Positions 8,824-47,828 of a stretch of DNA of 64,000 bases are shown piece by piece. The stretch comes from a virus, in the IMG/VR virus record IMGVR_UViG_3300011977_000001; one strand, 5' to 3'. The notes beneath the pieces were generated by a model, which worked only from the letters and a program-made list of their open reading frames with translations, did not search any database and was not told the origin of the DNA. Within the stretch, counting starts at the first letter, position 1; every line of letters starts with the position of its first letter. Both the position numbers and the translations under genes were made by a program.

Positions 8824-9270
8824 TTACAGGAGAAAATCATGTGTTGCTAAGCGTTTCTCATAATCTGCTGTGAGAAATGTAACCGTTGATATTGTCTGAT
8901 TATTCTTGAACTCAGGGTGTGACCGGCAGTAGTGGTTGTAAGTTGTTATGTCTGACATGCATTGATCGTATCTGTCCTTACTTGGCTTTTTGTTATTATC
9001 TACCAGCTCATCGCTGAATCTCAGAATCCGTACCCTTGCTGTTACCGCTTCTCGCTCATCTCCTTTGTCTTCCACCCGCTGTATCTTCTGGTCCACTGTG
9101 TCAAATCGCTTATGGACATCATCAAAGCGTTTGTCAATCTGATCAAATCGCTTATTGAACTCAGAATTTTGAGCTTTCTTTGCATCGTGCCTGGAAATCA
9201 GGAACTGGGCAAATCCTAAAACACCCATCCCTCCTCCAAGAAGAATCGATATTACTCCTGTCCAATCCAT
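8824..9270 (-). CDS. hypothetical membrane-anchored protein in the lysis cassette
   Basis: 148-aa ORF with an N-terminal TM segment (VISILLGGGMGVLGFAQFLI), then the repeated KRFDxxxKRFDxV coiled-coil-like motif. Confidence 0.5.
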   Translation of the reverse strand: MDWTGVISILLGGGMGVLGFAQFLISRHDAKKAQNSEFNKRFDQIDKRFDDVHKRFDTVDQKIQRVEDKGDEREAVTARVRILRFSDELVDNNKKPSKDRYDQCMSDITTYNHYCRSHPEFKNNQTISTVTFLTADYEKRLATHDFLL

Positions 9271-9325
9271 TTCTCTGTCCTTCTTTTTAATGTATTGTGA
9301 TTCTTCCCAGTTTCATCATGAGTGC

Positions 9326-10240
9326 CTATTTCTGTTGCTTCCAGCCCTGCATAATCAGTCTCTGCTGCTTGAATCTCTGAATATCATTTGCAGACATACT
9401 GCTGGCTGTGATCGTCCCGTACATAATGTCTTCCTGGTACGGTGAATGAGTCACGCCGATGCAGTGTCCTAGTTCATGCACAATAACCATGTTGATCATT
9501 TTCTGCGAATAAAGTCTCAGATAGCTGTTATTCAGCATAACCAGGAAATGTTCTGCTGTATCGTCTGTCGAATAGCTCACTGCTACCCAGCTTTTGTTTG
9601 CGTTCAGGTTATCCGCTGTCTCCTGGGAGACATATCGGTTTTGTATTGCTTTTCCGTTCGAGTAGTCTGACACCATGATGTCGGCTACTGACGGGTCTGG
9701 AGTATACACAAACGTCCGCCCGATCTTCTTATTGATAAAGTCAATCGCTTTCTTGATCTGGGCCTTGTGTATGCTCTTATAACTCCCGATAAAGCAGAGA
9801 CCATCAGGTGACTTTGGCATGAATAAAGCCCTGGTAGAAGCCCACGGAAGCGTTTGATTGCATCCAATATCCGTAATCTTGATCATGACCGTCTTGCTGG
9901 TTCTGCTGCCGGTCCGGTCTTTCACCATGCACCGATACTTCCAACCGATCTGGCGGATGTTACTTTTCCGGATATAGGTCCGTCTGGTCGCCCCCTGAAT
10001 CTTTTTCCATTTCTTGCCAGGTTTCTTCACGTACCATTGATATGTCAGCTTCTTCCCGGAGGCTTTCAGCTCAAATTCAACATTTCCTCCCAGCCTGGTT
10101 AGCTGTGTTTGAGGCTGAATCTTGATCTTTGGTTTTGCCTGGGTGATCTGTACATTCAGCAACATGTAGACTAAAAGCGCCATCATGCAGAAAGTCCACC
10201 GGGCAGTCATTTTTTGAAATTTTATTCGATCGTTTTTCAT
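9326..10240 (-). CDS. secreted Ig-like domain + metzincin-type zinc metalloprotease
   Basis: ATG 10240 has a GAGAGGGGAAAG SD. There is a signal/TM segment WTFCMMALLVYMLLNVQITQA and an Ig-like repeat (YQWY...GATRRTY...YRCMV). The extended zinc motif is HELGHCIGVTH (HExxHxxGxxH), followed by IMYG (Met-turn). Confidence 0.7.
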   Translation of the reverse strand: MKNDRIKFQKMTARWTFCMMALLVYMLLNVQITQAKPKIKIQPQTQLTRLGGNVEFELKASGKKLTYQWYVKKPGKKWKKIQGATRRTYIRKSNIRQIGWKYRCMVKDRTGSRTSKTVMIKITDIGCNQTLPWASTRALFMPKSPDGLCFIGSYKSIHKAQIKKAIDFINKKIGRTFVYTPDPSVADIMVSDYSNGKAIQNRYVSQETADNLNANKSWVAVSYSTDDTAEHFLVMLNNSYLRLYSQKMINMVIVHELGHCIGVTHSPYQEDIMYGTITASSMSANDIQRFKQQRLIMQGWKQQK

Positions 10241-10338
10241 CGCTTTCCCCTCTCGGCTCAAGCCTTCTGCTCTTGTTTCCTATTCTCAGAGCCGGGAGGA
10301 CAAAGTACAAGAATCCAGGTGCAAAAGTCTGGACACCA

Positions 10339-11469
10339 TCACGCACATAATTGATAGAGCTGATACTGGTCCAGCCCGTCTGCACTGTGTTCTTTGCAGA
10401 GTATCATTTCTTCATTGACTTTCTTTTCCAGCTGTTTTGAGTCAGTCTTTTTCAGAAGTCCAATAAAGCTCTGATACACCTGCGTACAGTATTCCAGTGT
10501 GTACATGCCATGAAGATACCCGTATCGGATACCTGCCAATGATCGTTTAATTCGAAGTGAAGTGGATTTTCTTACATTGATCTGGAACGGTCTGATCTTG
10601 AAGCCTACAAACTCACAACCCTGAGCTGCCGGCCTGATACAGGTTTTCTCATTCAGGTCGAGCTGCAGTTCTTCCCTCAGAAAATTGTCAATCAAAGTTT
10701 CCCACTGATGCAATTTCTGTTTGCTCTCACTCAGGATGATCACGTCATCCATGTATCGTTCATATAATTTGATTCTCAGCTTCCGCTTGCAATACTGATC
10801 AAGCTCATTTAGAAACAGATTTGCGAACATCTGGCTCATCAGGTTCCCAATCGGCATTCCAACTTCAGGAAGCCGGTTCTCCATCGGGACATCCTCTGGC
10901 TGCATTCCTCTCGGTAGTCCGAAACACGTGTGTTTGCAATCAATGATACTGAATAGCACACTGAGAAGTCGCTCATCCGCTATGCGCCGTCTGAGAACAG
11001 CTTTCAATATTTCATGCGGGATTCTGTAGAAATACTTGCTTATATCAAGTTTGAGATAATATAGGTTCTTACCATCACGGGTTGATTTATCAAGCCACGA
11101 TTCCAAGCGCAGGATTGCGCTTATCACGCCCCGCCCTGGAATGCAGCCGTAGGAATCATTTATGTATCCTCGCACAAATATCGGATTCAGCACTTGATAT
11201 ATCGCCCATTGAACGACTCTGTGCTTGAACGCTATCGACATGATGATTCGATATTTCGGTTCATGTATTTGAAAGATATAATATTTATCAATCTCGTATT
11301 CGCCTGAATAAATCTGGTCTCTGAGGTCAGTGACGTTAGTCCAACCATCGTAGTTGAATCTAAGAACAGGCGGTTCATATCGTCTTCCCCGTGAGGCGTT
11401 CTGCAAAGCCTCCCAAAGATTCTCTTTCGAGAATATCTGATCAAAAACGTTCTTTATCTGCTTAGACAC
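10339..11469 (-). CDS. diversity-generating retroelement (DGR) reverse transcriptase
   Basis: RT motifs are present, including YMDD (ERYMDDVII) and the DGR-typical MPIGNLMSQMFANLFLNELD. The gene is adjacent to the TR, avd and a VR-bearing target gene. Confidence 0.9.
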   Translation of the reverse strand: MSKQIKNVFDQIFSKENLWEALQNASRGRRYEPPVLRFNYDGWTNVTDLRDQIYSGEYEIDKYYIFQIHEPKYRIIMSIAFKHRVVQWAIYQVLNPIFVRGYINDSYGCIPGRGVISAILRLESWLDKSTRDGKNLYYLKLDISKYFYRIPHEILKAVLRRRIADERLLSVLFSIIDCKHTCFGLPRGMQPEDVPMENRLPEVGMPIGNLMSQMFANLFLNELDQYCKRKLRIKLYERYMDDVIILSESKQKLHQWETLIDNFLREELQLDLNEKTCIRPAAQGCEFVGFKIRPFQINVRKSTSLRIKRSLAGIRYGYLHGMYTLEYCTQVYQSFIGLLKKTDSKQLEKKVNEEMILCKEHSADGLDQYQLYQLCA

Positions 11470-11710
11470 TTAAATATTCCTATTCGTGCTTAGTGGTTCT
11501 CACCATCACTGGTTACTAACGGCTTACACGCTTGCAGCTGTTTTGTTTGTCTCCGCAGCCGCTGGGCTGTATACGCACACACAGTCCGTCATTTTTCGCA
11601 TCTTTTCAGCGTGGAAACAGACTCCTTTTCCCCCATCGCACTGAGAAAGAATCCTTAGGCTCTTAATATCTGGCTATGCATAGCGTTTCACCATACATCT
11701 TGTGTGGGGT
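11470..11710 (-). ncRNA. DGR RNA spacer region between TR and RT (expected part of the TR-containing template/primer RNA)
   Basis: This is a 241-nt ORF-free stretch directly 3' of the TR on the transcribed strand. The role is inferred from the architecture of characterised DGRs. Confidence 0.5.
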
Positions 11711-11827
11711 AAAGCCGACCGGAACCCGATGTTGCCGTTCGAGTTCGAGCGAGGGTTGTTCAAGTTGACATAGAACACACCGGCATTGCCCTCATTGTTC
11801 CAGTTGCCGCCGCAGTTAGCCACCCGC
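11711..11827 (-). repeat. DGR template repeat (TR)
   Basis: The TR is 117 bp and 106/117 identical to 12302..12418. All 11 mismatches are at plus-strand T, which is A on the transcribed strand. In frame it reads as 11 AAY codons. Confidence 0.92.
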
Positions 11828-11847
11828 AATAGCCTGTTCCCTACCGA

Positions 11848-12228
11848 TTATCCTTTTGAAGCCTTTTTCTTGCTTTCCCACTCCTCCACGATCGTCCGTC
11901 TTGCACCCACTAGTCTTCCTATTTCTGTCAAATAGTCGTTCCAGACTTCAAATGTGTGGTGTGAAAAATAATGCTCCCTGTCACATATCAGCAGATAATG
12001 TTTCAGCTTTGCATTCGCAATGTCCAGGTCTCTCAGGGTAGTCTTCTTAAAATACATTTCATCCGCTTCAACGGCTCTTTCTAGCATTGTATCCATGCAT
12101 GATCTCATATCGGATACGATCGTAAACCGTACAGATTTTGGAAATTGGTTGAATGCGTGATACGCATATCCCATCATATCCTCAATCTTCAGAAGCGTCT
12201 TTTTGTCTTCTTCATTGTTTCTTGCCAT
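11848..12228 (-). CDS. avd: DGR accessory variability determinant (Avd, four-helix-bundle type)
   Basis: 126-aa helical, basic-tailed ORF between the target gene and the TR. FPKSVRF...EIGRLVGARR parallels the Avd pattern (...EVGRILGSW... in the Bordetella phage Avd, as I recall it). Confidence 0.8.
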   Translation of the reverse strand: MARNNEEDKKTLLKIEDMMGYAYHAFNQFPKSVRFTIVSDMRSCMDTMLERAVEADEMYFKKTTLRDLDIANAKLKHYLLICDREHYFSHHTFEVWNDYLTEIGRLVGARRTIVEEWESKKKASKG

Positions 12229-12244
12229 AATCGTTTTCTATCCC

Positions 12245-12278
12245 GTGGGGCGGGGCATTCGCTATCGCTCAGCCCCAC
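12245..12278 (-). promoter_or_regulatory. GC-rich hairpin just 3' of the VR (candidate DGR homing-associated hairpin)
   Basis: GTGGGGC (12245..12251) pairs with GCCCCAC (12272..12278). An alternative register uses GGGGC/GCCCC. The hairpin lies 14-47 nt after the target gene stop. Confidence 0.4.
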
Positions 12279-12291
12279 AGGAATCAGGAGC

Positions 12292-13347
12292 TCAGGCAAT
12301 AAAAGCCGACCGGAACCCGATGCCGCCGTACGAGTTCGAGCGAGGGTCGTTCAAGTAGACAAAGAACACACCGGCAACGCCCTCACTGTTCCAGTCGCCG
12401 CCGCAGTCAGCCACCCGCTCGCCCTGGCAGTTCCAGCCATGGTAGTCCCCACCGTAATCCCCGTTAGGTTCATCCGGATATAGAATCAGCGCTTTGGCCA
12501 GCTCAGGAGCTGTAAGCCCACTTTCAATTCCCATTGCTGCGAAAGAAGACCAGTTTGTTACACTTGTATCTGGTTTTGCTGTAACGAGTGAATTTGAAGC
12601 ACCATATTTCAAGGTACCTGCTGTCCCTGGTGTAACCAGTGAACCACTCTTAGAGATTGCTTTCCAAAGCGTGGAAGAAGATCCAGTATCGCAATCAGCT
12701 CCAAGCGCAGCATTGTTATACGGGATGATCTGAATCTCGCCATCAACCAGTCTCAGTCCGGTCTGCCACTCCCAGATGTTTCCGTTCAGGTCCTGGATTC
12801 CAAATTTCGTATGATCATGTCCCCATGTAGCCGGTCCAGAGCCAGTCAGCACACGATTTATCTTATATGTATCTCCACTGCCCTCATGAGAGGCTTCCTG
12901 ACCTTTCTCATACGGGTACGCAGAATCGTGACCGAACTGGTTATTACCATGAGGCATAGTTCCCATCTGACGGGTCAGAAGAGCGATTGCAGCCCATTCA
13001 GCCTGGCTGGAAAGGTGGAATCCAGCTCCTTTGTTGTCGCAGTAAGTTTTAGCCTGATCATACGTAACATATGTAGCCGGGTCTCTCCTGGCCAGGGAAT
13101 ACGCACGTTTGTTGATTACGACATTCTGGTACTTTGAGTAGTAGAAGCAAGGCTTCTCAACTCCGCCAACCATGAATGCCGGGTGGACGTTGCTGCTTCC
13201 GCCCTTAATCAGCTCAGAATTGAGCATTTTCGGAATCGGTACATAGATTCCAGGCTTGTCCATATCGTCCATCAGGACAACATTCTCGCCCCCAGACAGT
13301 TCAGAGACTGCCGCTGCCATATTGTCATAATTTTCTTTGTAAGCCAT
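12292..13347 (-). CDS. DGR target protein: tail-fibre/receptor-binding protein with C-terminal C-type-lectin/FGE-sulfatase-like variable domain
   Basis: 351-aa ORF. The C-terminus ...CGGDWNSEGVAGVFFVYLNDPRSNSYGGIGFRSAFIA is encoded by the VR and matches the usual GG.W.N...AG.F...LN...SN....IGFR.A scaffold. It is the last gene of the tail-fibre cluster. Confidence 0.85.
   Translation of the reverse strand: MAYKENYDNMAAAVSELSGGENVVLMDDMDKPGIYVPIPKMLNSELIKGGSSNVHPAFMVGGVEKPCFYYSKYQNVVINKRAYSLARRDPATYVTYDQAKTYCDNKGAGFHLSSQAEWAAIALLTRQMGTMPHGNNQFGHDSAYPYEKGQEASHEGSGDTYKINRVLTGSGPATWGHDHTKFGIQDLNGNIWEWQTGLRLVDGEIQIIPYNNAALGADCDTGSSSTLWKAISKSGSLVTPGTAGTLKYGASNSLVTAKPDTSVTNWSSFAAMGIESGLTAPELAKALILYPDEPNGDYGGDYHGWNCQGERVADCGGDWNSEGVAGVFFVYLNDPRSNSYGGIGFRSAFIA
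12302..12418 (-). repeat. DGR variable repeat (VR)
   Basis: Counterpart of the TR at an offset of +591. Codon changes relative to the TR are AAC>GAC (x3), AAT>AGT, AAT>GTT, TAT>TTT, AAC>TAC (x2) and AAC>GGC. Confidence 0.92.
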
Positions 13348-13366
13348 CTGATTCTTTCCCTCCTAG

Positions 13367-13708
13367 TCAGATTGAGTACAGTTTCAGGGTTACGTTGTCC
13401 ATGCTGAACGGGACTGCGATTTTCTCCTGAATTACCTTCTGGGAAGTCTCGTCCTCCGGGTCATAGTCCGGGTTGTCCTTCTCAACCATGTCGTACTGTC
13501 TTGCCGGGATCTCGATCTGAGCAACGTACTCTCTCGCCAGGCCGGTGTGAAGAATGCCGTATTCATCGATACAAATATCAACTGAAATGTCGTCATCTCT
13601 TTCCAACCTTGCCAGGTTGAGTGTGAGCTCGTCATCGCCAAAAGTGATTTTGGTTTTTCTGACCTCGTAATCAATCTTTGGTCCTTCATTTACTTCGATT
13701 ACATTCAT
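13367..13708 (-). CDS. hypothetical tail-fibre-cluster protein
   Basis: 113-aa ORF between the fibre gene and the DGR target. No motif recognised. Confidence 0.5.
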   Translation of the reverse strand: MNVIEVNEGPKIDYEVRKTKITFGDDELTLNLARLERDDDISVDICIDEYGILHTGLAREYVAQIEIPARQYDMVEKDNPDYDPEDETSQKVIQEKIAVPFSMDNVTLKLYSI

Positions 13709-13728
13709 CGAATTTCCCCTTTCCGCCT

Positions 13729-13887
13729 TTATCTCTGGCTTTCGTAAACGGTATTCGTCTTCTGGGCGATCTCGTCAGCCATCTCTCTCTGGTGCTGAGT
13801 TGCCCGAGACGGGTCAATGCCGTAATTGCGCAGCTCCTGTTCCATCTGCTCTCTGCGCTCATCTGAATAAATAATTACATTAGCCAT
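13729..13887 (-). CDS. hypothetical small protein (52 aa, below track cut-off)
   Basis: My own translation gives MANVIIYSDERREQMEQELRNYGIDPSRATQHQREMADEIAQKTNTVYESQR. The ATG overlaps the upstream TGA (TGATG). Confidence 0.4.
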   Translation of the reverse strand: MANVIIYSDERREQMEQELRNYGIDPSRATQHQREMADEIAQKTNTVYESQR

Positions 13888-14357
13888 CAGGATGCGTTTC
13901 CTCCGTGAACATAGAACTTCACTGTGGCCGAGCTAGCAGAGCCTGTAAACCTTGCCTTGAATCCGTTTACCTGCTTGTCGTACACAGCGATGTCGCCGAT
14001 ATTAACGTCTGCAGACTGAATCTCGTAATCCACGATGTAATCCATGGTGTCACGCTTGTTCGTCAGAACGATCGTTGTATCGGAATTATTCTGATAGAAT
14101 CCACCGGTGTTCTTGAGCGTAACGACATGAGTCTCGCCCTTCACATCATTGATGCTTGCTTCGTGGCCGGTCATGATAGTCGTGAGGTAAGCCAGGAGTT
14201 TTGTGTTCGCATCGATTCCGGTTTCCAGGTTGTTGAAATGTTCCTGGTCCATCGGTGTGCCGGTCTGCCCAATTTCTGGGACATCATCAAGCCAGGTGGT
14301 TGGATTGTAATGTTTGTCCCAGTCATTTTCGAGATACGGCTGCTGAATAGTTTCCAT
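13887..14357 (-). CDS. tail fibre protein (XkdV-like N-terminus)
   Basis: The N-terminus W.D...IGQTGTPMDQEHFNNLETGID resembles the conserved start of PBSX-type fibre proteins. The call is also supported by position after the baseplate genes. Confidence 0.55.
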   Translation of the reverse strand: METIQQPYLENDWDKHYNPTTWLDDVPEIGQTGTPMDQEHFNNLETGIDANTKLLAYLTTIMTGHEASINDVKGETHVVTLKNTGGFYQNNSDTTIVLTNKRDTMDYIVDYEIQSADVNIGDIAVYDKQVNGFKARFTGSASSATVKFYVHGGNAS

Positions 14358-38161: not shown

Positions 38162-41100
38162 TCAAGTAAAAGAATAGCCGAATCTTAATTCATCGAACGA
38201 TACAGCACAGTCAAAGCTCTTCGATACTCCTGCTGCACCATCAGGACCAGCCTCAACCACGTAAATCGTTGTCTTTCTCGCTCCGCTCGGCCAGGTCTGT
38301 TCTTCTTTGTGAAGTACCGTCCAGGAAGCCTTAGAGCTCGCCATGACCTCTTTTTCTCCGTAGGTAGATAAGTGATCGACTGGTGCGGCAGTCCTGTTGT
38401 GCAGGCATACAATCATAACAGAATCCTCATCATTTGCGCCTACATGAGCAAAGTTCAGCCCGACTGCTTTGTCGCTTGACCATGAGCTCATCCTGCCTCG
38501 CATATCGATCGTTGCGCCTTTGCCGGCCTTTTTCATGAACTCGTCATAGTCTTCACGCCTGCCGAAATGTATTCCTCGATACATCGTACCATCAAATGCT
38601 GGTGCTCTGTCCAGGTAGACTTCTGCTGCATCCTGGTCGGACTTTCTGAGTGTTTCATCAGCAAAATACTTTTCCAGCCCTTTCAGGCTTTTCTCTACTG
38701 AACCTCGGTCCAGTCCGGAGTCTTCTTGCATGTGTTTCAGCCTTGCTTCGATGTATCCTTCTCTCTCCCCTTCTTTTATGATACTGATCTGCCCTTTTGT
38801 CGGCTTTGTTGGCCGATAATCCCCATTTTGCTGAAGCAACTGGAAGCCATCGTCCAGAACATCTTTCATTTTCCCAGAGTTGAATGCCTCTATACAGTCA
38901 TCTTCAGAAATAAAGCCGTTGTCGATTGCATACAGAGCCTGATCAGAATCATCTCCATCGTCAAGCTGTTTCCGTACTTCTTTCAGGTGATTCCACCAGG
39001 AAGAGGACCCGGCCTCAGCTTTTGCTTTGATCTTCATTTCACCATGAGAGTTGCTTGTGTGCTGCTTAGTAGTCTTTCCTGTATGAGCTTTTCCTTTTCC
39101 TGGCTTGTAGTTGATGACTAAGGCGGCAGCGGTTCCGGTCGTAAATTTCCCGTCCTTACCGTGATACGGATTATACTTTTCAATAGCACTCTTCTCGACT
39201 TCTTTACCATCACTGTATGACGGCCAGAAGCCGAACTCATTCAGACTATCGCCGGCGAACTGAATCTCTTTAGCTTTAACTTTGAATGCATGTACTGGGA
39301 CGTTTTCATATCTTCCTTCTCCTTTTGCATAAGTTCTTGACAGTGATACCCAGTCGCCCTCATTCAGCTCGTCCTTCGGGCTTGCCCTATACACAGTCAC
39401 TTCTGCATCTGGGCTATCTTTGATCTTCCGCAGCGCAACCATCGATTCACGCAGCTCCGGTCCGTCAAGAGAATACCAGTCCGGGTGTTCCCAGAAATCA
39501 TCTGGAATCGCACCTTTCTCGGTTATGTCAAACGCTCTTCCTGACCTGCTCGGCCTGTGCTGAAGCGCATAATCCAGCTCCCCGCTCGGGTTATGCCTGT
39601 GTATTCTCTGGTCCGAATCGGGTTCTGATTTTGCTGCTTTCTTTCTCGGAACTGTAGATTTTGCGTTGCCTCCGGTTGTGAATTTACCATCAGCTCCGTG
39701 ATAAGGGTTGTATTTGTCTATTCTCTCTACCCCTAACATTTTCAAAACGGTATCATCCTGCAGACCATTCGCTGACTTACCGATGCCATCATCAGGGCCA
39801 GTCTCTACTACATAGATATATGTTTTTCTCGCTCCTTGATATTCAGTTGTTTCTGAGTACATTACCGTCCATCTTGCAGTTGAGCTTGCAAGAATCTCTT
39901 GTTCTCCCTGGCTGCTAATATGTGCGACCGGTGTTGATGTTCTGTTCTTTACGCACTGTATTACGACTGAATCCGCTTTTGAGTCTACTGCGTGCGCAAA
40001 TCCTCTGGCTATTTCTTCTAAGCTGGTCCATGAGCTAGGTTCGTCACGCATTCCAATCGTGCTTCCAGGCTTAACATGGGACATAAATTCGTCATACTGC
40101 TTGCTTCCCTTATCCCAGGCTATTCCTCGGTATGATATGCCATCAAACGCTGGAGATTTTGATACAAAATCATCGATCACATCACGGTCTTCTTCGTAGT
40201 AGGATCCTCCAAAATATTTTTTCAGTTTCTGGTAGTATTCCTCTGCTTTGTTCCTGTCTACTCCCGTATCTTCGCAGATATGTCTTAGCCTGGCTTCATC
40301 CCATCCAACTTTTGAGGCTTCTGCTGAAATGCTAGTCTGTCCTTTAGTCGGTTTTGTTGGGCGATAATCTCCATTTTTTTCGAGAATATTGAAGCCAGTG
40401 TCTAATAGCTCATCTGCAGTTCCTTCCTGCATAGCTTTTATACAGTCTGTTTGTGATGCGAAGTAATGTTTCTTTGCATACAGGGCTTTTTTGTTTTCTT
40501 TTTCTCCTCTTAGTTTGTCTCGCTCATTTTTTATATGATCGAACCACTCATTATTATGAGACTCATTCTCTCTTGAAATATCATTTTCATGCGTTTCACT
40601 GGTATGCGAAATATTACTTACCATCGAAGCGGCCATTTCCTTTTGGCTTGTCTTAAATGGAACAGTTGTCTTAGCATTTCCACCAGTCGTAAATTTCCCG
40701 TCTTTCCCGTGGTAGGGATTATATTTGACGATCTCTTCCAGGCTATTCATTCCAAGAAGTTTTGCGGTCGAATCATCAAATCCGAGCATCTTGGCAACTT
40801 TTACCATGGGTTCCGACTTCTCAATGCTCCCGTCTTCCTTTGTGACATAAAGGACCGGTATCTTGTCGAGTCCCAGGTTGTATGCAGCCATCGCACGATG
40901 TCTCCCCTCCTGGCCTCCGTTGCCTTCTCCGACATTCAGATACGGCATATCCATTTCCGTTCCGTTTTCCATCTTTCCAGCCAAGTTCTCAATGTTCTTC
41001 TTATCCAAACCCAGCACCTGGCTAAGGGCTGTTGTGGTTCCTTCCCCTGTTTCTTTCCCTGTGTTGAAGTTTGCTGCGCATCTTTCCAGATACTCTTCAG

Positions 41101-43300
41101 GGGACATTTCAACGATTGTGGCTTTCAGACCATGATCTCGTAAGTTTTCCCGATCATCGTAGAAACTGATTCCTGTACTATCCTTAAATCCCGGATAATG
41201 TTTCTGGCTTGCCGGTGTCGGTTCAGGCATATCTGCGTTTGTCTTTGGTCCACCATCTGCATTCGCTATGACCTGCTTCAGATGTTTGTTCGCCTGCTGT
41301 AAGTCTTCCAGGGCTTTATCAGACTTTTGAGCTGCTGCATGAAATTCTTCTCTTCCTTCTTCAGGTGGAAGTCCGATTGAAGCCATGAACTTATCATCCT
41401 CGGTCCATTGGTCCTTCGGCTTTTGTTTCAGGTTCTTGTATGCCCTGTCTTTCTCTGCATCTGCTTCATTAAATGCGTCTGCTGCAGCTTTCAGCCTTGC
41501 CCTTGCTTCTTTGTACTCTGACGTAGAAAGGACTTTCGCTCCGATCTCTTTCGAGTAGTCATGCATCGGTTCTCCACTCAGCTTCGATACTTTCTGTGAA
41601 TGAGCTGAGGTCCCATTCGGGTCCACTACAACGCCAGCCCCTGCTGCACAAAACCTCCCGTTTGCATCGTGATTGTGATTGTATTTCAGGATCTCACCAT
41701 CGATTTTGTCCAGGTCGCTCTGTGCATCGTCCGCTTTTTGAATGATTTCTTCTTCAGGCAGTCCCAGCATTTTCTGAATGATCTTCCTTTTTGCCGGTTC
41801 CACCATCAAAAGCTGTGGGCAACGGACCGCTGATTTTTTCAAGCTGCTTCCTCCTGCAAACTGTCCCTGTGTATGATCGATCCAGGCTACATCTTCCAGT
41901 TTTACTGTTCTTGAATACGGGGGATTTCCGCCATAAGAGACCGCATCCTCCCGGCTCGGTGTTACAAAAATTCCGTTCGTGATCGGATGTGAGGAATATA
42001 TTCTGATCTTTCCCGTCTTCAATGCTTTCTGTGCATCAGCCCAGGTATAATCATCTGTATAGTCGTCTCCTGGTTCAAATCCCTCATTAGCCAAGTTTTC
42101 AGGCTGAAGTGTCTCGGCAAATGTCTTAATGTCATCGACTGATCTTATCCATGTCTGATAGCTATTCGGTGCGGGATTGCCGGCCGTAACGATCTTGAAC
42201 TGTCTCTTTTTCAGGTCCGCTACACTTTCTGTGCTTTCTTTGGCTTCCGCTTCTGGTGTCTTTCCACCATCGCCTGTGACATTGTGCCCAGCTCCGACAA
42301 ACTTGCCGTCCTTCCCGTGATTATGATTGTATTTTTCTATCGATTCTTCTGCAGACTTCTCAACATCATCCGGTATCCGATAAATGACATTCAGCTGATA
42401 ATCTTTATCACCCATGACAGGCTGTGCTCCGACCAATTCCAGCTTTTTGTTTCTCCCCAGTACCACTTCGCTCTCGCCCTCATTATCTGTAACAAGTGCA
42501 TGTGTTCCCTCTGGTGTCAGAATTGAAACTCTTACAGGACGATCTCTGAAGTAATTCAGCTCGCTAGCCATCGATGCCGACATATATCCAGGGTTTCTAA
42601 GCATCTTTCCAGTGTGCTTATTGATCTGATCTGCGATAGCCTGTACGGATTGAAGATCCCACTTGCCTGATTTGACCGCTCTCTCAACATCTTCTCCGAT
42701 TGCATACACACTTTGAATGTCGTTCATCCTGGTCAACATGACCTCTTTTTTCAAAGTATCTGCGTGTGTTGCTTTATCCAGTTCGCCAATCAGATCATCT
42801 TTCAAGCTCTCTTTCATCAAGTACATTTCAACTTCAATTTCCCGATCGGTTTTTCCTTCTTTTTTCAGATGTTCTCTATAAGATTCCTCAGTTCCGCCGC
42901 ACCGAAGATAAGCATTGATTCTTTTGGATTTACCATTGTTTACATATTCGTTCTGCGCTCTTCTGACAGCTTCAGCGGTATCTTTGTCCATCGGCTTTTC
43001 TCTTGTTGGGCCCTGCTTATTCAAATAGGCCCAATAATCAGTTTCGGACATGTCCTGGTATGTTTTCCCACCTACTGTGATCTTTTCGCCTGAATATCGT
43101 GTCATGTACTCATCCATCTGGGCAAAGTTATAGCCGCTGGTATCTTCATTCATGTCCACCTGTTCAAAACTCAATCCGCTATCGCCATCACCGGTTACAT
43201 TCTGGCCACTTGGTGCAAATTTTCCGTCCTTCCCGTGGTTGTGGTTATATTTGAGTATGCTGACTCTGTTCTTTCGTGCTTCTGTGAACAGTATTGCCAT
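38162..43300 (-). CDS. giant polyvalent effector protein (~1712 aa): six leader-delimited modules including three ADP-ribosyltransferase domains and a ParB/Srx-like domain
   Basis: I chose ATG 43300 (MAILFTEARK; AAAGGAG SD) over the track start at 43360. Core motifs lie at 43217, 42299, 41651, 40691, 39680 and 39143. ART triads are INAYLR/YMSAS/EGESEVV, YRG/SSWTS/QGEQEIL and YRG/SSWSS/YGEKEVM. The ParB-like motif is GQEGRHRAMAA...IPV. Confidence 0.8.
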   Translation of the reverse strand: MAILFTEARKNRVSILKYNHNHGKDGKFAPSGQNVTGDGDSGLSFEQVDMNEDTSGYNFAQMDEYMTRYSGEKITVGGKTYQDMSETDYWAYLNKQGPTREKPMDKDTAEAVRRAQNEYVNNGKSKRINAYLRCGGTEESYREHLKKEGKTDREIEVEMYLMKESLKDDLIGELDKATHADTLKKEVMLTRMNDIQSVYAIGEDVERAVKSGKWDLQSVQAIADQINKHTGKMLRNPGYMSASMASELNYFRDRPVRVSILTPEGTHALVTDNEGESEVVLGRNKKLELVGAQPVMGDKDYQLNVIYRIPDDVEKSAEESIEKYNHNHGKDGKFVGAGHNVTGDGGKTPEAEAKESTESVADLKKRQFKIVTAGNPAPNSYQTWIRSVDDIKTFAETLQPENLANEGFEPGDDYTDDYTWADAQKALKTGKIRIYSSHPITNGIFVTPSREDAVSYGGNPPYSRTVKLEDVAWIDHTQGQFAGGSSLKKSAVRCPQLLMVEPAKRKIIQKMLGLPEEEIIQKADDAQSDLDKIDGEILKYNHNHDANGRFCAAGAGVVVDPNGTSAHSQKVSKLSGEPMHDYSKEIGAKVLSTSEYKEARARLKAAADAFNEADAEKDRAYKNLKQKPKDQWTEDDKFMASIGLPPEEGREEFHAAAQKSDKALEDLQQANKHLKQVIANADGGPKTNADMPEPTPASQKHYPGFKDSTGISFYDDRENLRDHGLKATIVEMSPEEYLERCAANFNTGKETGEGTTTALSQVLGLDKKNIENLAGKMENGTEMDMPYLNVGEGNGGQEGRHRAMAAYNLGLDKIPVLYVTKEDGSIEKSEPMVKVAKMLGFDDSTAKLLGMNSLEEIVKYNPYHGKDGKFTTGGNAKTTVPFKTSQKEMAASMVSNISHTSETHENDISRENESHNNEWFDHIKNERDKLRGEKENKKALYAKKHYFASQTDCIKAMQEGTADELLDTGFNILEKNGDYRPTKPTKGQTSISAEASKVGWDEARLRHICEDTGVDRNKAEEYYQKLKKYFGGSYYEEDRDVIDDFVSKSPAFDGISYRGIAWDKGSKQYDEFMSHVKPGSTIGMRDEPSSWTSLEEIARGFAHAVDSKADSVVIQCVKNRTSTPVAHISSQGEQEILASSTARWTVMYSETTEYQGARKTYIYVVETGPDDGIGKSANGLQDDTVLKMLGVERIDKYNPYHGADGKFTTGGNAKSTVPRKKAAKSEPDSDQRIHRHNPSGELDYALQHRPSRSGRAFDITEKGAIPDDFWEHPDWYSLDGPELRESMVALRKIKDSPDAEVTVYRASPKDELNEGDWVSLSRTYAKGEGRYENVPVHAFKVKAKEIQFAGDSLNEFGFWPSYSDGKEVEKSAIEKYNPYHGKDGKFTTGTAAALVINYKPGKGKAHTGKTTKQHTSNSHGEMKIKAKAEAGSSSWWNHLKEVRKQLDDGDDSDQALYAIDNGFISEDDCIEAFNSGKMKDVLDDGFQLLQQNGDYRPTKPTKGQISIIKEGEREGYIEARLKHMQEDSGLDRGSVEKSLKGLEKYFADETLRKSDQDAAEVYLDRAPAFDGTMYRGIHFGRREDYDEFMKKAGKGATIDMRGRMSSWSSDKAVGLNFAHVGANDEDSVMIVCLHNRTAAPVDHLSTYGEKEVMASSKASWTVLHKEEQTWPSGARKTTIYVVEAGPDGAAGVSKSFDCAVSFDELRFGYSFT

Positions 43301-43465
43301 ATGCTTGCTCCTTTCTGTGCGTCCACCTGCCTTAACTTTATGCATTAGTACGTTTTTCATAAAGGATTCAGGTCACATTCAACGGGGTACGCATTTGACA
43401 GAGCATAAAAAAGACGGCTGCCCTGGTTTTTGCCATGACAACCGTCTTTTACTGATTTGTTTATT

Positions 43466-45636: not shown

Positions 45637-47385
45637 TCACGTTGTTGCCTTTGAAAGAATTGTTTCCACTACTACAGGGCTTATATCGTAATCGCTCACC
45701 GGCAGCAGTCTGATCGCTCCACCATTCCACTGTGAAAGTCTCGGCTGTCCCCCTACGCCTCCGATCTCGCTGACATACTTCTTCACCTCGTCAGCTCCGA
45801 CAAATGACTTTCCGCTCTGAGGGTCATACAGCCATGTAGTTCCTTTTGATCTCTCGGCTATGATAATGTGTGCACCAGCGCCGTCTCCCCAGCCAAATTC
45901 CATTGTGTATCTCTTACCCTCTTTCAGGGTATTATCCAGGAATCCTGCTGCCTCTTCTGCATCCTTAAATGTTGCCGGGCTATGAATGTTCTTCGGTCTA
46001 TCCTTTGTTCCAGGGATTCGCCATGCCCAGGTTGAATCTTGCGATAGCTGGTCCTGATCATAGTTTCCTTGCATTCTCGGTTTTGCCTCTACATTGAAGC
46101 CTCTTCTTCTAGCTTCATAAGCCAGCACGCAGGTCTGGCAATTATAATGCCTGTAAGTTGAGTTTTCAAATCCAGGATTGGCTTTCTGGCTGTTTGCCTG
46201 CTCAAATGTCATAGGTTCTCCCTTATGAACTCCTGCTAAGCTCTTCGGGTCTGTAACCCCTGGGCCGCAGTGAGTACCATCATCCGTGTCAAACCCGTTC
46301 TGATGCACTTTCGGGTTGTTCACTCCTCCGACTCCCTCATTGTGTCCCATTCCGACAACCTTCTCTTCTGCTCCTCCTGTCGTAAATCGGCCGTCTTTAC
46401 CATGATAAGGGTTGTATTTTCTGATCACAGAATAGTTATGATCATAGCTTTTCTTGATGAATCCTTCTTCGATTGCTCTTTCTCGGCTTATGATGTCGTT
46501 GTCCAAATACTGCTGTAGGTGTTCCGGGTTTTCTTTCAGTTCTTCGACTACCTTATCCTCAAAGGCTCTTCTGGCTTTTCTCCTTTTCTCCTTATATCCA
46601 TCAATTTTCTTACGGGCCGTCTCTGCGATCTCTTTGGAAAACGGGTGTGCATTCTTCCCATTCACGCAATAATCAGAAATAGCCTCGGCAAAAAGCTCCT
46701 GTCCTCCTCCTGTCCGCTCTGCGTATCCGCTAACCGCTTTTCTCAGGTCGGAAATTGACGGAACAGTACCACCCGCTTCCTCAATTTTCTTCTTATAGCT
46801 GTCGTAAGCCTCCATCATTACATCGTAAGATTCTTCTCCAGCTCTCCATCCATCAGCTATCATAAGGCCGCCTGCATGTTTCATCTCATACATTGTCTTT
46901 TCCAGAACGTGGCCCGCTTCGTGTGCTCCGATAAGTTTCATCGCATCCCCATTTGGATGAAACCCGATTTTTTGGTCTCCTTCATATGCAGCCTTTATCC
47001 TTTCCGGGTTGGAATACCATGAAGAATTAACCGAAATATCTTCCCCTTCTGTTCCTGCATACGCAGCTGGGCCAAGGGCCATATCATTACCGACACTTAT
47101 ACTTTTTATTTTTCCTGTTAATTCCGGAAATTTATCGATTGCAGCAGCCACTCCGTCAGCAGTGCCCTTTACAGAGTCAAAATCCAGGCTTTCTATATCT
47201 CCGACCATGCGGATTCCGTATTTTTTATCCACTGTATTGGCCAACTGCTTTGCAGTTTTACATCCAGCCACTTGGCTTTTCCTGCTCCTTACCGTTTTAG
47301 CCGCACTTCCTCCGGACGTAAATTTTCCATCTTTACCATGGTAAGGATTATACTTTTTGATCTGTTCGAATGTCTGTGCTCTCAT
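45637..47385 (-). CDS. two-module leader-tagged protein: HEAGH metallopeptidase-like domain + papain-fold (Cys-His-Asp) peptidase/deamidase-like toxin domain
   Basis: Module 1 starts MRAQTFEQIKKYNPYHGKDGKF (47320..47355) and carries AHEAGHVLE and ELFAEAISDYCVNGKNAHPFSKEI. Module 2 starts at IRKYNPYHGKDGRF (46384..46419) and carries YNCQTCVLAYEARRRG, GAHIIIAE and YDPQ. Confidence 0.65.
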   Translation of the reverse strand: MRAQTFEQIKKYNPYHGKDGKFTSGGSAAKTVRSRKSQVAGCKTAKQLANTVDKKYGIRMVGDIESLDFDSVKGTADGVAAAIDKFPELTGKIKSISVGNDMALGPAAYAGTEGEDISVNSSWYSNPERIKAAYEGDQKIGFHPNGDAMKLIGAHEAGHVLEKTMYEMKHAGGLMIADGWRAGEESYDVMMEAYDSYKKKIEEAGGTVPSISDLRKAVSGYAERTGGGQELFAEAISDYCVNGKNAHPFSKEIAETARKKIDGYKEKRRKARRAFEDKVVEELKENPEHLQQYLDNDIISRERAIEEGFIKKSYDHNYSVIRKYNPYHGKDGRFTTGGAEEKVVGMGHNEGVGGVNNPKVHQNGFDTDDGTHCGPGVTDPKSLAGVHKGEPMTFEQANSQKANPGFENSTYRHYNCQTCVLAYEARRRGFNVEAKPRMQGNYDQDQLSQDSTWAWRIPGTKDRPKNIHSPATFKDAEEAAGFLDNTLKEGKRYTMEFGWGDGAGAHIIIAERSKGTTWLYDPQSGKSFVGADEVKKYVSEIGGVGGQPRLSQWNGGAIRLLPVSDYDISPVVVETILSKATT

Positions 47386-47576: not shown

Positions 47577-47828
47577 TTTTCTTTTCCTCGTATTATAGTG
47601 TGTAGCCAATCTTTACCTGTTCTTGGTAAAAGGCTATGCTGTTATGGATGCTGTGGATTAGTATTTGTTTCCTACCACCAGATGGTTTCAGAAAGGGTCT
47701 GACCACAGCCTCCTGCTACTTTGTTGATCAGTCAGATACCGCATGACGGTTTATGTGGAACGAGGATACGAAAGCAGCGAGTCCTTGTGGGTCCAACAGC
47801 ATCAAATAATCTTACGGAGGTGATCTCT

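Follow-up and report, generated by a model that had tools for sequence, protein, structure and literature searches.

The prototype diversity-generating retroelement (DGR), that of the Bordetella podovirus BPP-1, has the order mtd-avd-TR-brt, with an AAY-rich template repeat (TR) of about 120 nt, lysis genes downstream and a variable repeat (VR) at the 3' end of the gene for a protein with a C-type-lectin (CLec) fold; a GC hairpin with GNNA as its loop comes after the VR. In the cryo-EM ribonucleoprotein of BPP-1 (Handa et al.), a Stop duplex joins sequence upstream of the TR to the spacer, and an Avd-binding stem-loop of about 9 to 11 bp, with a tetraloop and flipped bases, lies downstream of the TR. 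In the same structure, the priming adenosine is the last base of the spacer strand that pairs with the 3' end of the TR, 2 nt before the Stop strand, and a short stem-loop and adenosines (A-minor motif) come directly past that strand. The reverse transcriptases (RTs) of DGRs carry the signature [I/V/L]GxxxSQ in place of QGxxxSP (PMC7826257), and the hairpin of phage-type DGRs has been described as a 7- to 10-bp GC-rich stem with a 4-nt GRNA loop, located 4 to 34 bp from the VR (Guo et al. 2011); enlarging its loop in BPP-1 abolished homing. A second reference system is the DGR of a Thermus aquaticus prophage, of BPP-1 layout, whose variable protein TaqVP (PDB 5VF4) has an FGE-subtype CLec fold. 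Lastly, DGRs are found in the gut Firmicutes myophages Clostridium phage Saumur, Dulem virus 37, Bacillus phage BalMu-1 and Faecalibacterium phage Lagaffe, and work on variation in reads and genomes has reported Lagaffe-type DGRs to be active.

The stretch of viral DNA analyzed here (64 kb, hereafter the window) almost certainly carries a canonical and currently active DGR with the BPP-1 layout (target-avd-TR-spacer-RT). The element belongs to the known gut Firmicutes-phage lineage of Saumur, Lagaffe and BalMu-1 and is of an already well-known kind. The phage is contractile-tailed, of roughly 102 to 106 kb and from the human or animal gut, and its host is probably a Lachnospiraceae-type member of the Clostridia. 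The anatomy of the element is as follows.

10339-11469, minus strand: DGR reverse transcriptase (RT), 376 aa, GTG start
11470-11710, minus strand: spacer (Sp) RNA, 241 nt, between TR and RT
11711-11827, minus strand: template repeat (TR), 117 nt, 25 adenines
11848-12228, minus strand: avd, accessory variability determinant, 126 aa
12242-12281, minus strand: GC-rich hairpin or cruciform after the VR
12270-12296, minus strand: CTG array, four units
12302-12418, minus strand: variable repeat (VR), codons 311-348 of the target, 14 of them adenine templated
12292-13347, minus strand: target gene (variable protein), 351 aa, FGE-subtype CLec fold, closing the baseplate/tail module

The preliminary description of this DNA had proposed a complete DGR with these genes in this order; order and coordinates were reproduced, the spacer measuring 241 nt, and we found all the expected parts, namely, a DGR-type RT, an Avd above threshold, an adenine-biased TR/VR pair and a TaqVP-like target. 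Gene order and strand logic are those of BPP-1, and lysis genes lie downstream in both. The synteny is identical to that of Saumur, Dulem virus 37, BalMu-1 and Lagaffe (baseplate J, gp48-like protein, ORFs of about 100, 150 and 113 aa, SUMF1/FGE-type target, Avd, TR, RT and lysis genes), whose A-biased TR/VR pairs measure 111 to 120 nt and whose RTs are 37 to 47% identical to that of the window. However, their genomes, at 40 to 54 kb, are about half the size of the window genome (roughly 104 kb), which also differs from them in an Ig-plus-metallopeptidase insertion between the RT and the lysis genes and in an extra hairpin in the spacer. In IMG/VR, no RT relative exceeded 62% identity, and neither INPHARED nor GTDB held a relative near enough for DNA or peptide-pattern searches.

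TR and VR were recovered by a repeat finder as a single 117-nt direct repeat, 91% identical and 591 nt apart, with a sharp break in homology at both ends. Compared base by base, they differ at 11 positions (plus-strand sites 11732, 11733, 11739, 11757, 11766, 11771, 11786, 11787, 11795, 11805 and 11817), every one of which is a plus-strand T in the TR and hence an A on the transcribed minus strand, exactly as first described; A makes up 25 of the 117 nt, and 11 positions drawn at random would all hit it with P~5e-9. The variation is adenine specific and runs one way, from TR to VR. Read in the frame of the ORF 13347-12292, the TR carries 11 AAY codons plus GAG, TAT and ATC. The re-analysis gave the same codon changes as those originally listed: eight of the 11 AAY codons are altered in the VR (GAC three times, TAC twice, and AGT, GTT and GGC), and TAT has become TTT. 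The target ORF reads through the VR in frame at its 3' end, and none of the VR variants contains a stop codon. The final 19 nt common to both repeats (UCGGGUUCCGGUCGGCUUU) are GC rich and the next 20 nt are unrelated, and, unlike in BPP-1, no IMH/IMH* pair is recognizable at the 3' ends. Additional VRs matching the TR had been suggested as worth seeking; an adenine-tolerant scan found no second VR in the 64-kb window, and none has been found so far in the genome, of which all but about 20 kb (of roughly 104 kb) was open to scanning, while Lagaffe has one.

The RT (RVT_1, 7.3e-22; PHROG 1423, 2.9e-119) has BPP-1 Brt (8ub7 chain) as its best PDB relative (1.4e-38), and its scores against non-DGR enzymes, GsI-IIC of group II (3.9e-17) and retron-type RTs (7e-16), are far weaker. 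The GTG start is supported, as the alignment with Brt begins at residue 1 in both proteins, which are homologous over their whole length, although the RT of the window is 48 aa longer (376 versus 328). IGNLMSQ (207-213) aligns on IGSLTSQ of Brt (181-187), and the catalytic, dNTP-contact and A-mutagenesis residues are conserved (Brt F66, R74, I76, I181/G182/Q187, equivalent to I207/G208/Q213, and YMDD). Similarity scores and signature together support a DGR-type RT that groups with the DGR clade, as the earlier classification had it. Avd, whose gene adjoins the TR with a gap of 20 nt, matches Pfam bAvd (PF22296; 63.7 bits, cutoff 40) and PHROG 3206, "Avd protein of DGR" (4.4e-25); phmmer detected no relative of it in the PDB.

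Covariation supports the prediction that the TR flanks fold into an RNA architecture of the BPP-1 type, with the following elements.

11831-11841, minus strand: 5' strand of the "cPRT Stop" duplex, GGGAACAGGCU, in the 20-nt avd-TR gap
11709-11705 with 11635-11631, minus strand: P1 helix, CCCCA with UGGGG (spacer alignment, RNAalifold)
11698-11676, minus strand: inserted 10-bp hairpin in the spacer, window specific
11664-11647, minus strand: 9-bp hairpin in the spacer, lineage conserved (RNAalifold, pair counts)
11626, minus strand: candidate priming A in an A-run of the spacer (Sp A85)
11625-11624, minus strand: GG linker in the spacer
11623-11613, minus strand: 3' strand of the Stop duplex, AGUCUGUUUCC (Sp88-98)
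11612-11597, minus strand: short stem-loop CGC-UGAAAAGAU-GCG in the spacer, then AAAAA at 11596-11592

The Stop duplex (11 bp, 11841-11831 with 11623-11613) is the longest helix between upstream sequence and spacer (9/500 shuffles) and was recovered de novo in the window and in four cultured or deposited relatives; as a control, the same search in BPP-1 returned the published avd369-379:Sp59-70 duplex. All 66 cells of the duplex are paired and 8 of the 11 pairs show compensatory change, and RNAalifold also found the duplex, together with the central hairpin, in an unfitted MAFFT alignment of 24 sequences. The helices covary: in a four-helix model, 87.4% of cells are paired, with 122 double-change cells versus 41 in shuffles and a covariation score of 0.483, compared with 0.11 to 0.19 for slid registers. 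The lineage-conserved 9-bp hairpin forms seven of its nine pairs in the window, with 10 to 11 double changes per pair across relatives, and either this hairpin or the window-specific one is a candidate for the Avd-binding stem-loop. An AARGG motif lies 5' of the Stop strand in all relatives; in the window, A83-A85 are predicted to pair with U116-U114, and GGGG with Sp2-5 (-11.4 kcal/mol). The short stem-loops of the relatives (CUCC...GGAG, CGGC...GCCG or CGCC...GGCG) are likewise followed by AAAA. Folded alone, the whole spacer is no better than shuffles (z = 0.09), so the support for the RNA is covariation only, and the spacer matches no Rfam family. The elements come in the BPP-1 order, namely, a hairpin, a putative primer strand with A at its end, a linker of 2 nt, the Stop duplex, a short stem-loop and adenosines. 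The differences from BPP-1 are that the 5' strand of the Stop duplex lies in the avd-TR gap and not inside avd, and that the spacer, at 241 nt with an extra hairpin, is longer than that of BPP-1 (about 140 nt). The gut myophage relatives have this spacer architecture, the CTG array and the post-VR hairpin in common with the window.

The target is a homolog of TaqVP throughout its length (1e-62, residues 8-350 versus 11-384), with VR aligned on VR, a shared GGxW...AG...L.NPR...G.G.R.AF scaffold and 12 of the 14 variable positions inside the TaqVP VR (341-374), despite the different host phylum and environment. Together with the sole Pfam match, FGE-sulfatase (2.4e-08), this bears out the C-type-lectin/FGE-like fold initially assigned; by homology to TaqVP, the protein may also be monomeric, with its 14 variable residues exposed at the surface. 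It further matches PHROG 2889 (1.7e-124). Upstream are genes for terminase, Mu-like portal, sheath, tube, tape measure, sheath initiator, baseplate J and a Mu gp48-like protein, the last separated from the target by three to four small conserved ORFs, and downstream of the DGR are lysis genes, including an endolysin. The target had been called a terminal tail-fiber gene. It is indeed the last gene of the tail/baseplate block, but comparison with Pfam and the PDB revealed no fiber-type or Mtd-type N-terminal attachment or trimerization domains, and "tail fiber" is a reading of gene position only. Whereas Mtd of BPP-1 is trimeric and has three domains, the target has a single TaqVP-like domain and no sequence match to Mtd, and no Mtd or fiber protein in the PDB matched it at an E value of 0.1 or less.

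To follow the element in natural populations, we compared the window with seven distinct assemblies from independent gut metagenomes (eight VRs in total); the evidence is thus a comparison between assemblies and not between reads. The TR showed no difference from that of the window in any of the seven, and each of the eight VRs was different, with 104 of 107 substitutions at TR adenines and all 25 adenine sites varying. As the same phage has an invariant TR but a differing VR each time, we consider the element active, and the "evidently active" of the preliminary description is upheld. On average, 52% of the A sites are substituted per VR; misincorporation by bRT-Avd at template adenines in vitro is also 52%. 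Outside the VR, divergence was 0 to 16 differences per about 8 to 9 kb (0.19% or less), compared with about 14% inside it. One assembly (L001/L005) had the three non-adenine changes, which could reflect low-level non-A misincorporation or a consensus from a mixed population.

That the element is a fossil, with mutagenic homing in the past, a retroelement now dead and VR differences that are old inherited polymorphisms, is very improbable. One genome cannot separate past from present activity, and the hairpin after the VR is non-canonical, but all samples share intact, identical copies of the RT, Avd, TR, spacer and post-VR elements, and two assemblies (L002 and L006) that match the window at every position of more than 8 kb outside the VR nevertheless differ from it at 16 and 13 positions of the VR itself. 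Besides, the VRs are mutually equidistant (13 to 22 differences, mean of 16.9), as independent draws predict, and have no shared derived states. The target belongs to a 90% protein cluster with 62 distinct sequences, while the RT is found as one exact sequence in 128 indexed blocks of the metagenome collection (and the Avd, also as an exact match, in 175); across the 13 full-length members of the cluster, the columns that vary correspond exactly to the 14 A-containing codons, with a single addition. A reading without any retroelement, in which the repeat comes from ordinary duplication or recombination and the VR diversity is an assembly artifact, is more improbable still, to the point of being negligible. 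Hypervariable regions do disturb metagenome assembly (Cornuault et al.), yet all 11 changes within the window and 104 of 107 among assemblies coincide with the adenines of one copy, always the same, which make up 21% of its positions, and this adenine-specific, one-directional pattern rules out duplication or artifact. Furthermore, every VR is in frame and free of stops, the repeat is flanked by Avd and an RT with the DGR signature, and the same adenine bias is seen in 64 related loci (795/816).

The identity of the target leaves more room, and we regard it as unlikely, though by no means negligible, that an active DGR diversifies something other than a receptor-binding tail fiber, either a protein for another ligand (mucus, glycans or a non-host surface) or a non-virion protein. 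A single-domain TaqVP-like CLec protein with no fiber- or Mtd-type trimerization domains, akin to the monomeric TaqVP, would fit such a role. Its best PHROG is of unknown function, related gut phage DGRs also diversify proteins that do not bind receptors, such as Hoc-like decoration proteins, and the second CLec target of Lagaffe lies in the early/replication region. Against this, the gene closes the baseplate block, as it also does in Saumur, Dulem virus 37, BalMu-1 and Lagaffe; a PHROG annotated as "tail protein" matches, in its C-terminal half, the CLec domain of the target (2.6e-13); and the prototype target, Mtd, is the receptor-binding protein of BPP-1. By this analogy, we infer that the target is a receptor-binding protein, in which case its diversification would change the host range of the phage.

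For the active DGR that we favor, the mechanism may be pictured as follows. The avd-TR-spacer region would be transcribed, and the RNA flanking the TR would fold through the duplex of the 11 nt upstream of the TR with Sp88-98, P1, the 9-bp hairpin and the stem-loop with its A-run, giving a scaffold that presumably binds the RT-Avd complex. The cDNA would be primed in cis from a spacer adenosine, for which Sp A85 (11626), located 2 nt before the Stop strand, is the candidate, its primer strand pairing with the GGCUUU end of the TR. The RT would copy the TR faithfully, except opposite adenines, and the cDNA would replace the VR, the 3' side of which may be marked by the CTG array and the GNNA-loop hairpin. 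The predicted outcome is the re-randomization of 14 codons, giving about 5.5e14 peptides, with no stop codons from AAY, and the residues so varied would lie on the ligand-binding face of the protein, which is of the TaqVP-like CLec type and encoded at the end of the tail module.

The post-VR hairpin (DNA fold of -13.2 kcal/mol, z of -1.7) departs from the canonical form in that its stem is interrupted. Its inner form, GGGGC-UGA-GC-GATA-GC-GAAU-GCCCC (12276-12252), has a stem of 2 bp, a 3x4 internal loop and 5 bp, while an alternative 11-bp outer stem, CCUGUGGGGC(U)/(G)GCCCCACGGG, closes a 20-nt loop. The GATA (GRNA) loop (12266-12263) lies 35 nt past the VR and the stem starts 20 to 25 nt past it; the stem falls short of the continuous 7 to 10 bp of Guo et al. 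(2011), and the z score is weak. No T-run follows, and the hairpin was not called as a terminator. The relatives have GATA-, GGTA- or GGCA-loop hairpins at the same location, with interrupted stems in at least 7 of 36. Ahead of the hairpin, the window has four CTG units (12295-12293, 12287-12285, 12280-12278 and 12272-12270), 8, 7 and 8 nt apart, in an array that overlaps the stop codon of the target and extends into the hairpin, whereas BPP-1 has one CTG and an uninterrupted stem. In the window alone, the array has P~0.01. We found no description of such an array in the literature, and it may be a cis element that marks the target, discriminating VR from TR in the role of IMH/IMH*. The array recurs between VR and hairpin in 36 relatives and is absent after their TRs: in these 36 non-redundant loci, there are 3.97 CTG per 50 nt after the VR versus 0.86 after the TR (p=7e-8), with strand specificity after the VR (143 CTG versus 12 CAG), and the array is also found 3' of the remote VR2 of Lagaffe.

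The pattern named in the preliminary description, a template repeat (TR) and a variable repeat (VR) that differ at template adenines, was confirmed in all its details with a repeat finder, a base-by-base comparison and the ORFs. Between 9000 and 15000 there is a single long direct repeat, formed by 11711-11827 (TR) and 12302-12418 (VR), two copies of 117 nt that are 91% identical and 591 nt apart, with homology ending abruptly at both sides. The copies show exactly 11 mismatches, at the very positions reported earlier, and each is a T in the 11711-11827 copy, that is, an A on the minus strand; with 25 adenines in the 117 nt of the TR, the chance of 11 random positions all falling on A is about 5e-9. 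The ORF coordinates and the order target, avd, TR, spacer and reverse transcriptase (RT) also stood as described.

Features of the diversity-generating retroelement (DGR)
13347-12292, minus strand: target, ORF of 351 aa
11848-12228, minus strand: avd, ORF of 126 aa
241 nt, minus strand: spacer between the TR and the RT
10339-11469, minus strand: RT, ORF of 376 aa with a GTG start

The GTG start is supported because the alignment of the RT to Brt of Bordetella phage BPP-1 begins at residue 1. Read in the frame of the target (13347-12292), the TR has 11 AAY codons plus GAG, TAT and ATC, which together hold all 25 adenines; in the VR, as had been claimed, eight of the AAY codons are altered (to GAC three times, TAC twice, AGT, GTT and GGC) and TAT becomes TTT.

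The RT is of the DGR type. It matches RVT_1 of Pfam (7.3e-22) and PHROG 1423 "Reverse transcriptase" (2.9e-119), and by far its best match among solved structures is the 328-aa RT of the 8ub7 series (1.4e-38), a chain with 100% identity to the annotated brt gene of BPP-1, whereas group II intron and retron-type RTs match at 4e-17 or weaker. The DGR signature [I/V/L]GxxxSQ (PMC7826257) is present as IGNLMSQ (residues 207-213), together with YMDD. Counterparts are retained for Brt F66, R74, I76, I181, G182 and Q187, which are reported to contact the template or dNTP or to promote adenine mutagenesis, and all these motifs and residues are invariant in an RT alignment with four phage relatives. 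RT residues 41-86, which correspond to the Brt N-terminal extension and fingers, also gave sub-threshold matches to HigB_toxin (8.9e-05, 23 bits, cutoff 27) and PHROG 5734, probably noise. Avd matches bAvd of Pfam with 63.7 bits, above the cutoff of 40, as well as PHROG 3206 "Avd protein of DGR".

The target matches FGE-sulfatase of Pfam, and its fold can be considered settled because it aligns end to end, at 1e-62, with the crystal structure 5vf4. According to its depositors, 5vf4 is TaqVP, a monomeric FGE-subtype C-type-lectin-fold variable protein from a Thermus aquaticus prophage DGR whose gene layout is of the BPP-1 type. The window VR aligns on the TaqVP VR, with 12 of the 14 variable positions inside TaqVP residues 341-374. 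The gene had been called a tail-fibre gene; its position in the tail module and its homology to Mtd and TaqVP make this reasonable, yet the protein is without fibre-type N-terminal domains. From the same gene position and homologies, it is a reasonable inference that diversification would retarget a receptor-binding protein.

The proposed reading, a complete and active element, is supported by the identities of the three proteins and by other assemblies of the same phage. The exact RT is indexed in 128 blocks of the metagenome collection and the exact Avd in 175, and we compared seven distinct assemblies in which the TR is identical to that of the window and every VR is different. Outside the VR, each locus has 0 to 16 differences from the window in 8.3-9.0 kb, and the TR, the spacer, the avd-TR gap and the post-VR elements are free of them; the 117-nt VR itself has 13 to 21 (about 14%, against 0.19% or less outside). 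Two of the loci, L002 and L006, match the window completely outside the VR and differ from it at 16 and 13 VR positions, respectively. Compared with the TR, eight VRs carry 107 substitutions, 104 of them at adenines (56 A>G, 27 A>T and 21 A>C); all 25 adenine sites vary among the eight, and none of the VRs contains a stop codon. Of 200 adenine cells, 104 (52%) are substituted, the same figure as the 52% misincorporation reported for bRT-Avd in vitro. Pairwise distances between VRs range from 13 to 22, with a mean of 16.9, so that the VRs are mutually equidistant, as expected for independent draws from the TR and not for descent from another VR. At the protein level, the 90% cluster of the target holds 62 distinct sequences; in 13 full-length members, the columns that vary correspond precisely to the 14 codons with an adenine, apart from one further biallelic site. 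Such a pattern marks a one-way transfer from TR to VR that is adenine-specific, recent and recurrent, as observed between assemblies rather than among reads within one sample. It makes the phage a clean natural case of ongoing mutagenic homing, with genomes identical over kilobases and 13 to 16 adenine-templated positions apart, and, as a prevalent uncultured gut phage of about 100 kb, well suited to tracking how receptor binding evolves in longitudinal metagenomes.

The three non-adenine changes all belong to assembly ERZ28614722 (L001/L005), at VR positions 30, 37 and 96 (C>A, G>T and C>T), with none in the other VRs; they could be low-level non-A misincorporation or the consensus of a mixed VR population.

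We also analyzed the spacer RNA (Sp, numbered from the TR end) by comparison with relatives. The nearest annotated RT, 47% identical, is that of Clostridium phage Saumur (host Enterocloster clostridioformis), and Saumur, Dulem virus 37, Bacillus phage BalMu-1, Faecalibacterium phage Lagaffe and the window share a block of baseplate genes, small ORFs, a SUMF1/FGE-type target, Avd, TR, RT and lysis genes. In the published BPP-1 RNA, Avd binds a stem-loop at the spacer's 5' end, TR and Sp form a primer duplex whose last nucleotide is the priming A56, and beyond a 2-nt linker lie the avd:Sp "cPRT Stop" duplex and a short stem-loop with adenosines after it; a thumb ring and an RT-binding stem are also described. 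Folding thermodynamics were uninformative, as the whole TR-plus-spacer RNA gave z = 0.09 and pair counts between upstream and downstream regions in MFE folds did not discriminate from shuffled upstream sequence. Pair counting was replaced by covariation and by a search for the longest helix that the spacer can form with the 40 nt preceding the TR; applied to BPP-1 as a control, this search returned the duplex known from the literature (avd 369-376 with Sp 63-70). In the window and the four named relatives it found one homologous duplex of 9 to 14 bp, upstream GGGRA... with spacer ...UYCC, whose spacer strand is always preceded by AARGG. In the hand-assembled alignment, 66 of 66 cells pair, with compensatory changes in 8 of 11 pairs.

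To avoid hand-fitting, we used a set of 80 IMG/VR loci with RTs 43-62% identical, relatives that were recovered from IMG/VR only with the RT alignment as query; 64 adenine-biased TR/VR pairs were detected among them, with 795 of 816 mismatches at A. An unfitted MAFFT alignment of the window with 23 of the 36 non-redundant loci was folded with RNAalifold, which independently predicted the long-range duplex again, together with a central hairpin of 9 bp that shows 10 to 11 double changes at most of its pairs. A four-helix model that adds P1 and the short stem is 87.4% paired (73.3% in shuffles) and contains 122 double-change cells (41 in shuffles), and its covariation score is 0.483, against 0.11-0.19 for slid registers.

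Elements of the spacer RNA model
11841-11831 with 11623-11613, minus strand: Stop strands, from helix search and covariation
11709-11705 with 11635-11631, minus strand: P1, from the four-helix model
11664-11647 (Sp47-64), minus strand: central hairpin, RNAalifold, conserved in the lineage
11612-11597, followed by AAAAA at 11596-11592, minus strand: short stem-loop, from the four-helix model

The lineage alignment also revised two earlier assignments: Sp13-35, considered as the Avd-binding stem-loop, is a window-specific insertion, and Sp47-53, considered as the primer strand, lies in the conserved hairpin Sp47-64. The insertion is a hairpin of about 27 nt (11698-11676, minus strand; AUGUAUGGUG-AAA-CGCUAUGCAU) between P1 and the conserved GYCAGA motif, absent from all 23 aligned relatives. 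The A-run before the Stop strand pairs with the GGCUUU end of the TR (-11.4 kcal/mol) and, by analogy with the BPP-1 geometry, we infer Sp A85 (window 11626), two nucleotides ahead of the Stop strand, as the candidate for the priming adenosine; all variable adenines are 5' of this point. In such a model the first templated base would be near TR position 113-114 (window 11714-11713), and cDNA synthesis would end just before 11831, with about 50% misincorporation restricted to A. The comparative analysis thus predicts a priming adenosine and gives covariation support, from a distant lineage of Firmicutes phages, to the BPP-1 RT-Avd-RNA cryo-EM scaffold in its Stop duplex, P1, hairpin and stem-loop with A-run. 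Rfam gave no hit at E <= 1 over 9000-14000; to our knowledge, DGR spacer RNAs are not in Rfam.

The phage-type element after the VR is a 7- to 10-bp GC stem with a GRNA tetraloop located 4-34 bp after the VR, and in BPP-1 a loop only 2 nt larger already lowers homing to near background (Guo et al. 2011). The window hairpin has a GATA loop closed by GC/GC, a 3x4 internal loop and a GGGGC/GCCCC stem, or alternatively an 11-bp outer stem with a 20-nt loop. Relatives have hairpins with GATA, GGTA or GGCA loops at the same place, with stems continuous in 23 of 36 and interrupted in at least 7. Because relatives' stems are interrupted too, the window hairpin reads as a variant of this lineage and not as a defect; activity is seen with it in place. 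A role as intrinsic terminator was rejected, as the hairpin has no T-run after it and was not flagged in a terminator scan. We could recognise no IMH/IMH* pair: the TR and the VR share their last 19 GC-rich nt and then diverge completely.

Between the VR and the hairpin (12270-12296, minus strand) there are four CTG triplets at +7, +15, +22 and +30, with spacings of 8, 7 and 8 nt. The same array follows the VR in the cultured or deposited relatives and in all 36 non-redundant IMG/VR loci, with 2 to 6 units each, and it is absent after all TRs examined. Among the 36, CTG density per 50 nt is 3.97 after the VR, 0.86 after the TR and 0.81 in the locus background (Wilcoxon p = 7e-8), and the spacing is 7 nt 59 times and 8 nt 25 times, with a consensus close to RAA-CTG-WAA. 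The signal is strand specific (143 CTG against 12 CAG, the complement not being enriched), and a CAG enrichment after TRs was traced to the conserved spacer motifs GYCAGA and CAGURC.

Lagaffe has a remote second VR (L101:32592-32706), at residues ~265-303 of a 421-aa early-region protein, with 17 mismatches to the TR, only 11 of them at A. Five CTG units follow it (L101:32707-32760) inside a coding region and in shifting reading frames, which argues for a role at the nucleic acid level tied to being a target. No canonical GC hairpin follows this VR, at which homing has been reported as active (PMC11792537), so homing there may not need one. Pairing of the spacer RNA with the array as a guide for the cDNA was rejected, since own and foreign arrays score alike (-22.84 and -22.83 kcal/mol, p = 0.6); protein binding, DNA structure and a replication or priming signal are all candidate modes of action. 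Neither Guo et al. 2011 nor the other DGR papers searched gave a description of such an array, which is no proof that it is undescribed. It might be the one new feature here, and we raise only as a tentative idea, somewhat doubtful to us, that it is a previously undescribed cis element marking the homing target in this Firmicutes-phage DGR lineage, the functional counterpart of the BPP-1 IMH. By separating VRs from TRs and accompanying a remote VR, the array offers a concrete, mutable candidate for a target-recognition signal in the lineage.

Additional VRs matching the TR had also been suggested as worth looking for. An adenine-tolerant scan that found both VRs of Lagaffe as positive control revealed no additional VR in the window or in the adjoining 9.5 kb on the left and 8.9 kb on the right, a region that covers all but about 20 kb of the genome, and tblastn detected no second CLec gene there.

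The element belongs to a lineage whose DGRs have already been described in gut phages, and DGRs that diversify CLec-fold proteins of the tail module are established and common there. As a DGR it adds little conceptually, and its practical value lies in the natural example of homing, the support for the RNA model and the handle on target recognition.

The window codes for a contractile-tailed phage, with a large terminase, Mu-type portal, sheath, tube, 1820-aa tape measure, sheath initiator, baseplate J and a Mu gp48-like protein, followed by four small ORFs, the target, the DGR, an Ig-plus-metallopeptidase gene, small ORFs and a lysozyme/CHAP endolysin. Contigs with the same genes cluster at 102-106 kb and their start points differ; a circularly permuted genome that is complete at about 104 kb is thereby suggested, and not a chromosomal prophage. 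We found no near relative at the DNA level in INPHARED (including a megablast with 7 kb), IMG/VR or GTDB, no exact match of the A-masked full-length TR pattern in IMG/VR, GTDB genomes or JGI metagenomes, and no related locus with the RT as single-protein query in viral and genome collections; among the collections searched, only ENA and Logan assemblies contain the phage. Samples ERZ28614722, ERZ28663618, ERZ930644, ERZ964372 and SRR31860950 are among those that carry it.

Several other genes deserve mention. Directly after the RT (9326-10261, minus strand), a gene conserved in all assemblies of the phage codes for a protein of 304 to 311 aa that combines a hydrophobic segment at its N terminus with an Ig-like domain and a zinc-metallopeptidase domain of the matrixin type (HExxH), whereas in Saumur, Dulem virus 37, BalMu-1 and Lagaffe this gene is absent at that position and lysis genes follow the RT. 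An IS110-family transposase (47721-49007, plus strand; DEDD_Tnp_IS110 and Transposase_20) lies on the opposite strand inside the phage and is polymorphic: the window and one other assembly (L098) have it, and five others lack it. The genomic relatives closest to it come from Lachnospiraceae and related Clostridia, with up to 88% in Lachnospiraceae/Eubacterium MAGs, which weakly supports a host of that kind. The 1732-aa ORF at 38162-43360 (minus strand) varies between assemblies (L095, L100), being 1712 aa, split or 1196 aa, and in one assembly the product has an ADP-ribosylating exotoxin domain (PF03496); the ORF seems to encode a protein of polymorphic-toxin or cargo type whose ends can be exchanged. 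Among the structural genes we also found a 582-aa protein with a papain-fold glutamine deamidase domain (45637-47385, minus strand; Gln_amidase, 2e-11) and a 309-aa Zeta-toxin/AAA_33 kinase-like protein (52716-53645, minus strand; 1.3e-22). Last, the phage codes for a tRNA-Glu (anticodon CTC) at 62022-62102 (minus strand), upstream of the terminase region.
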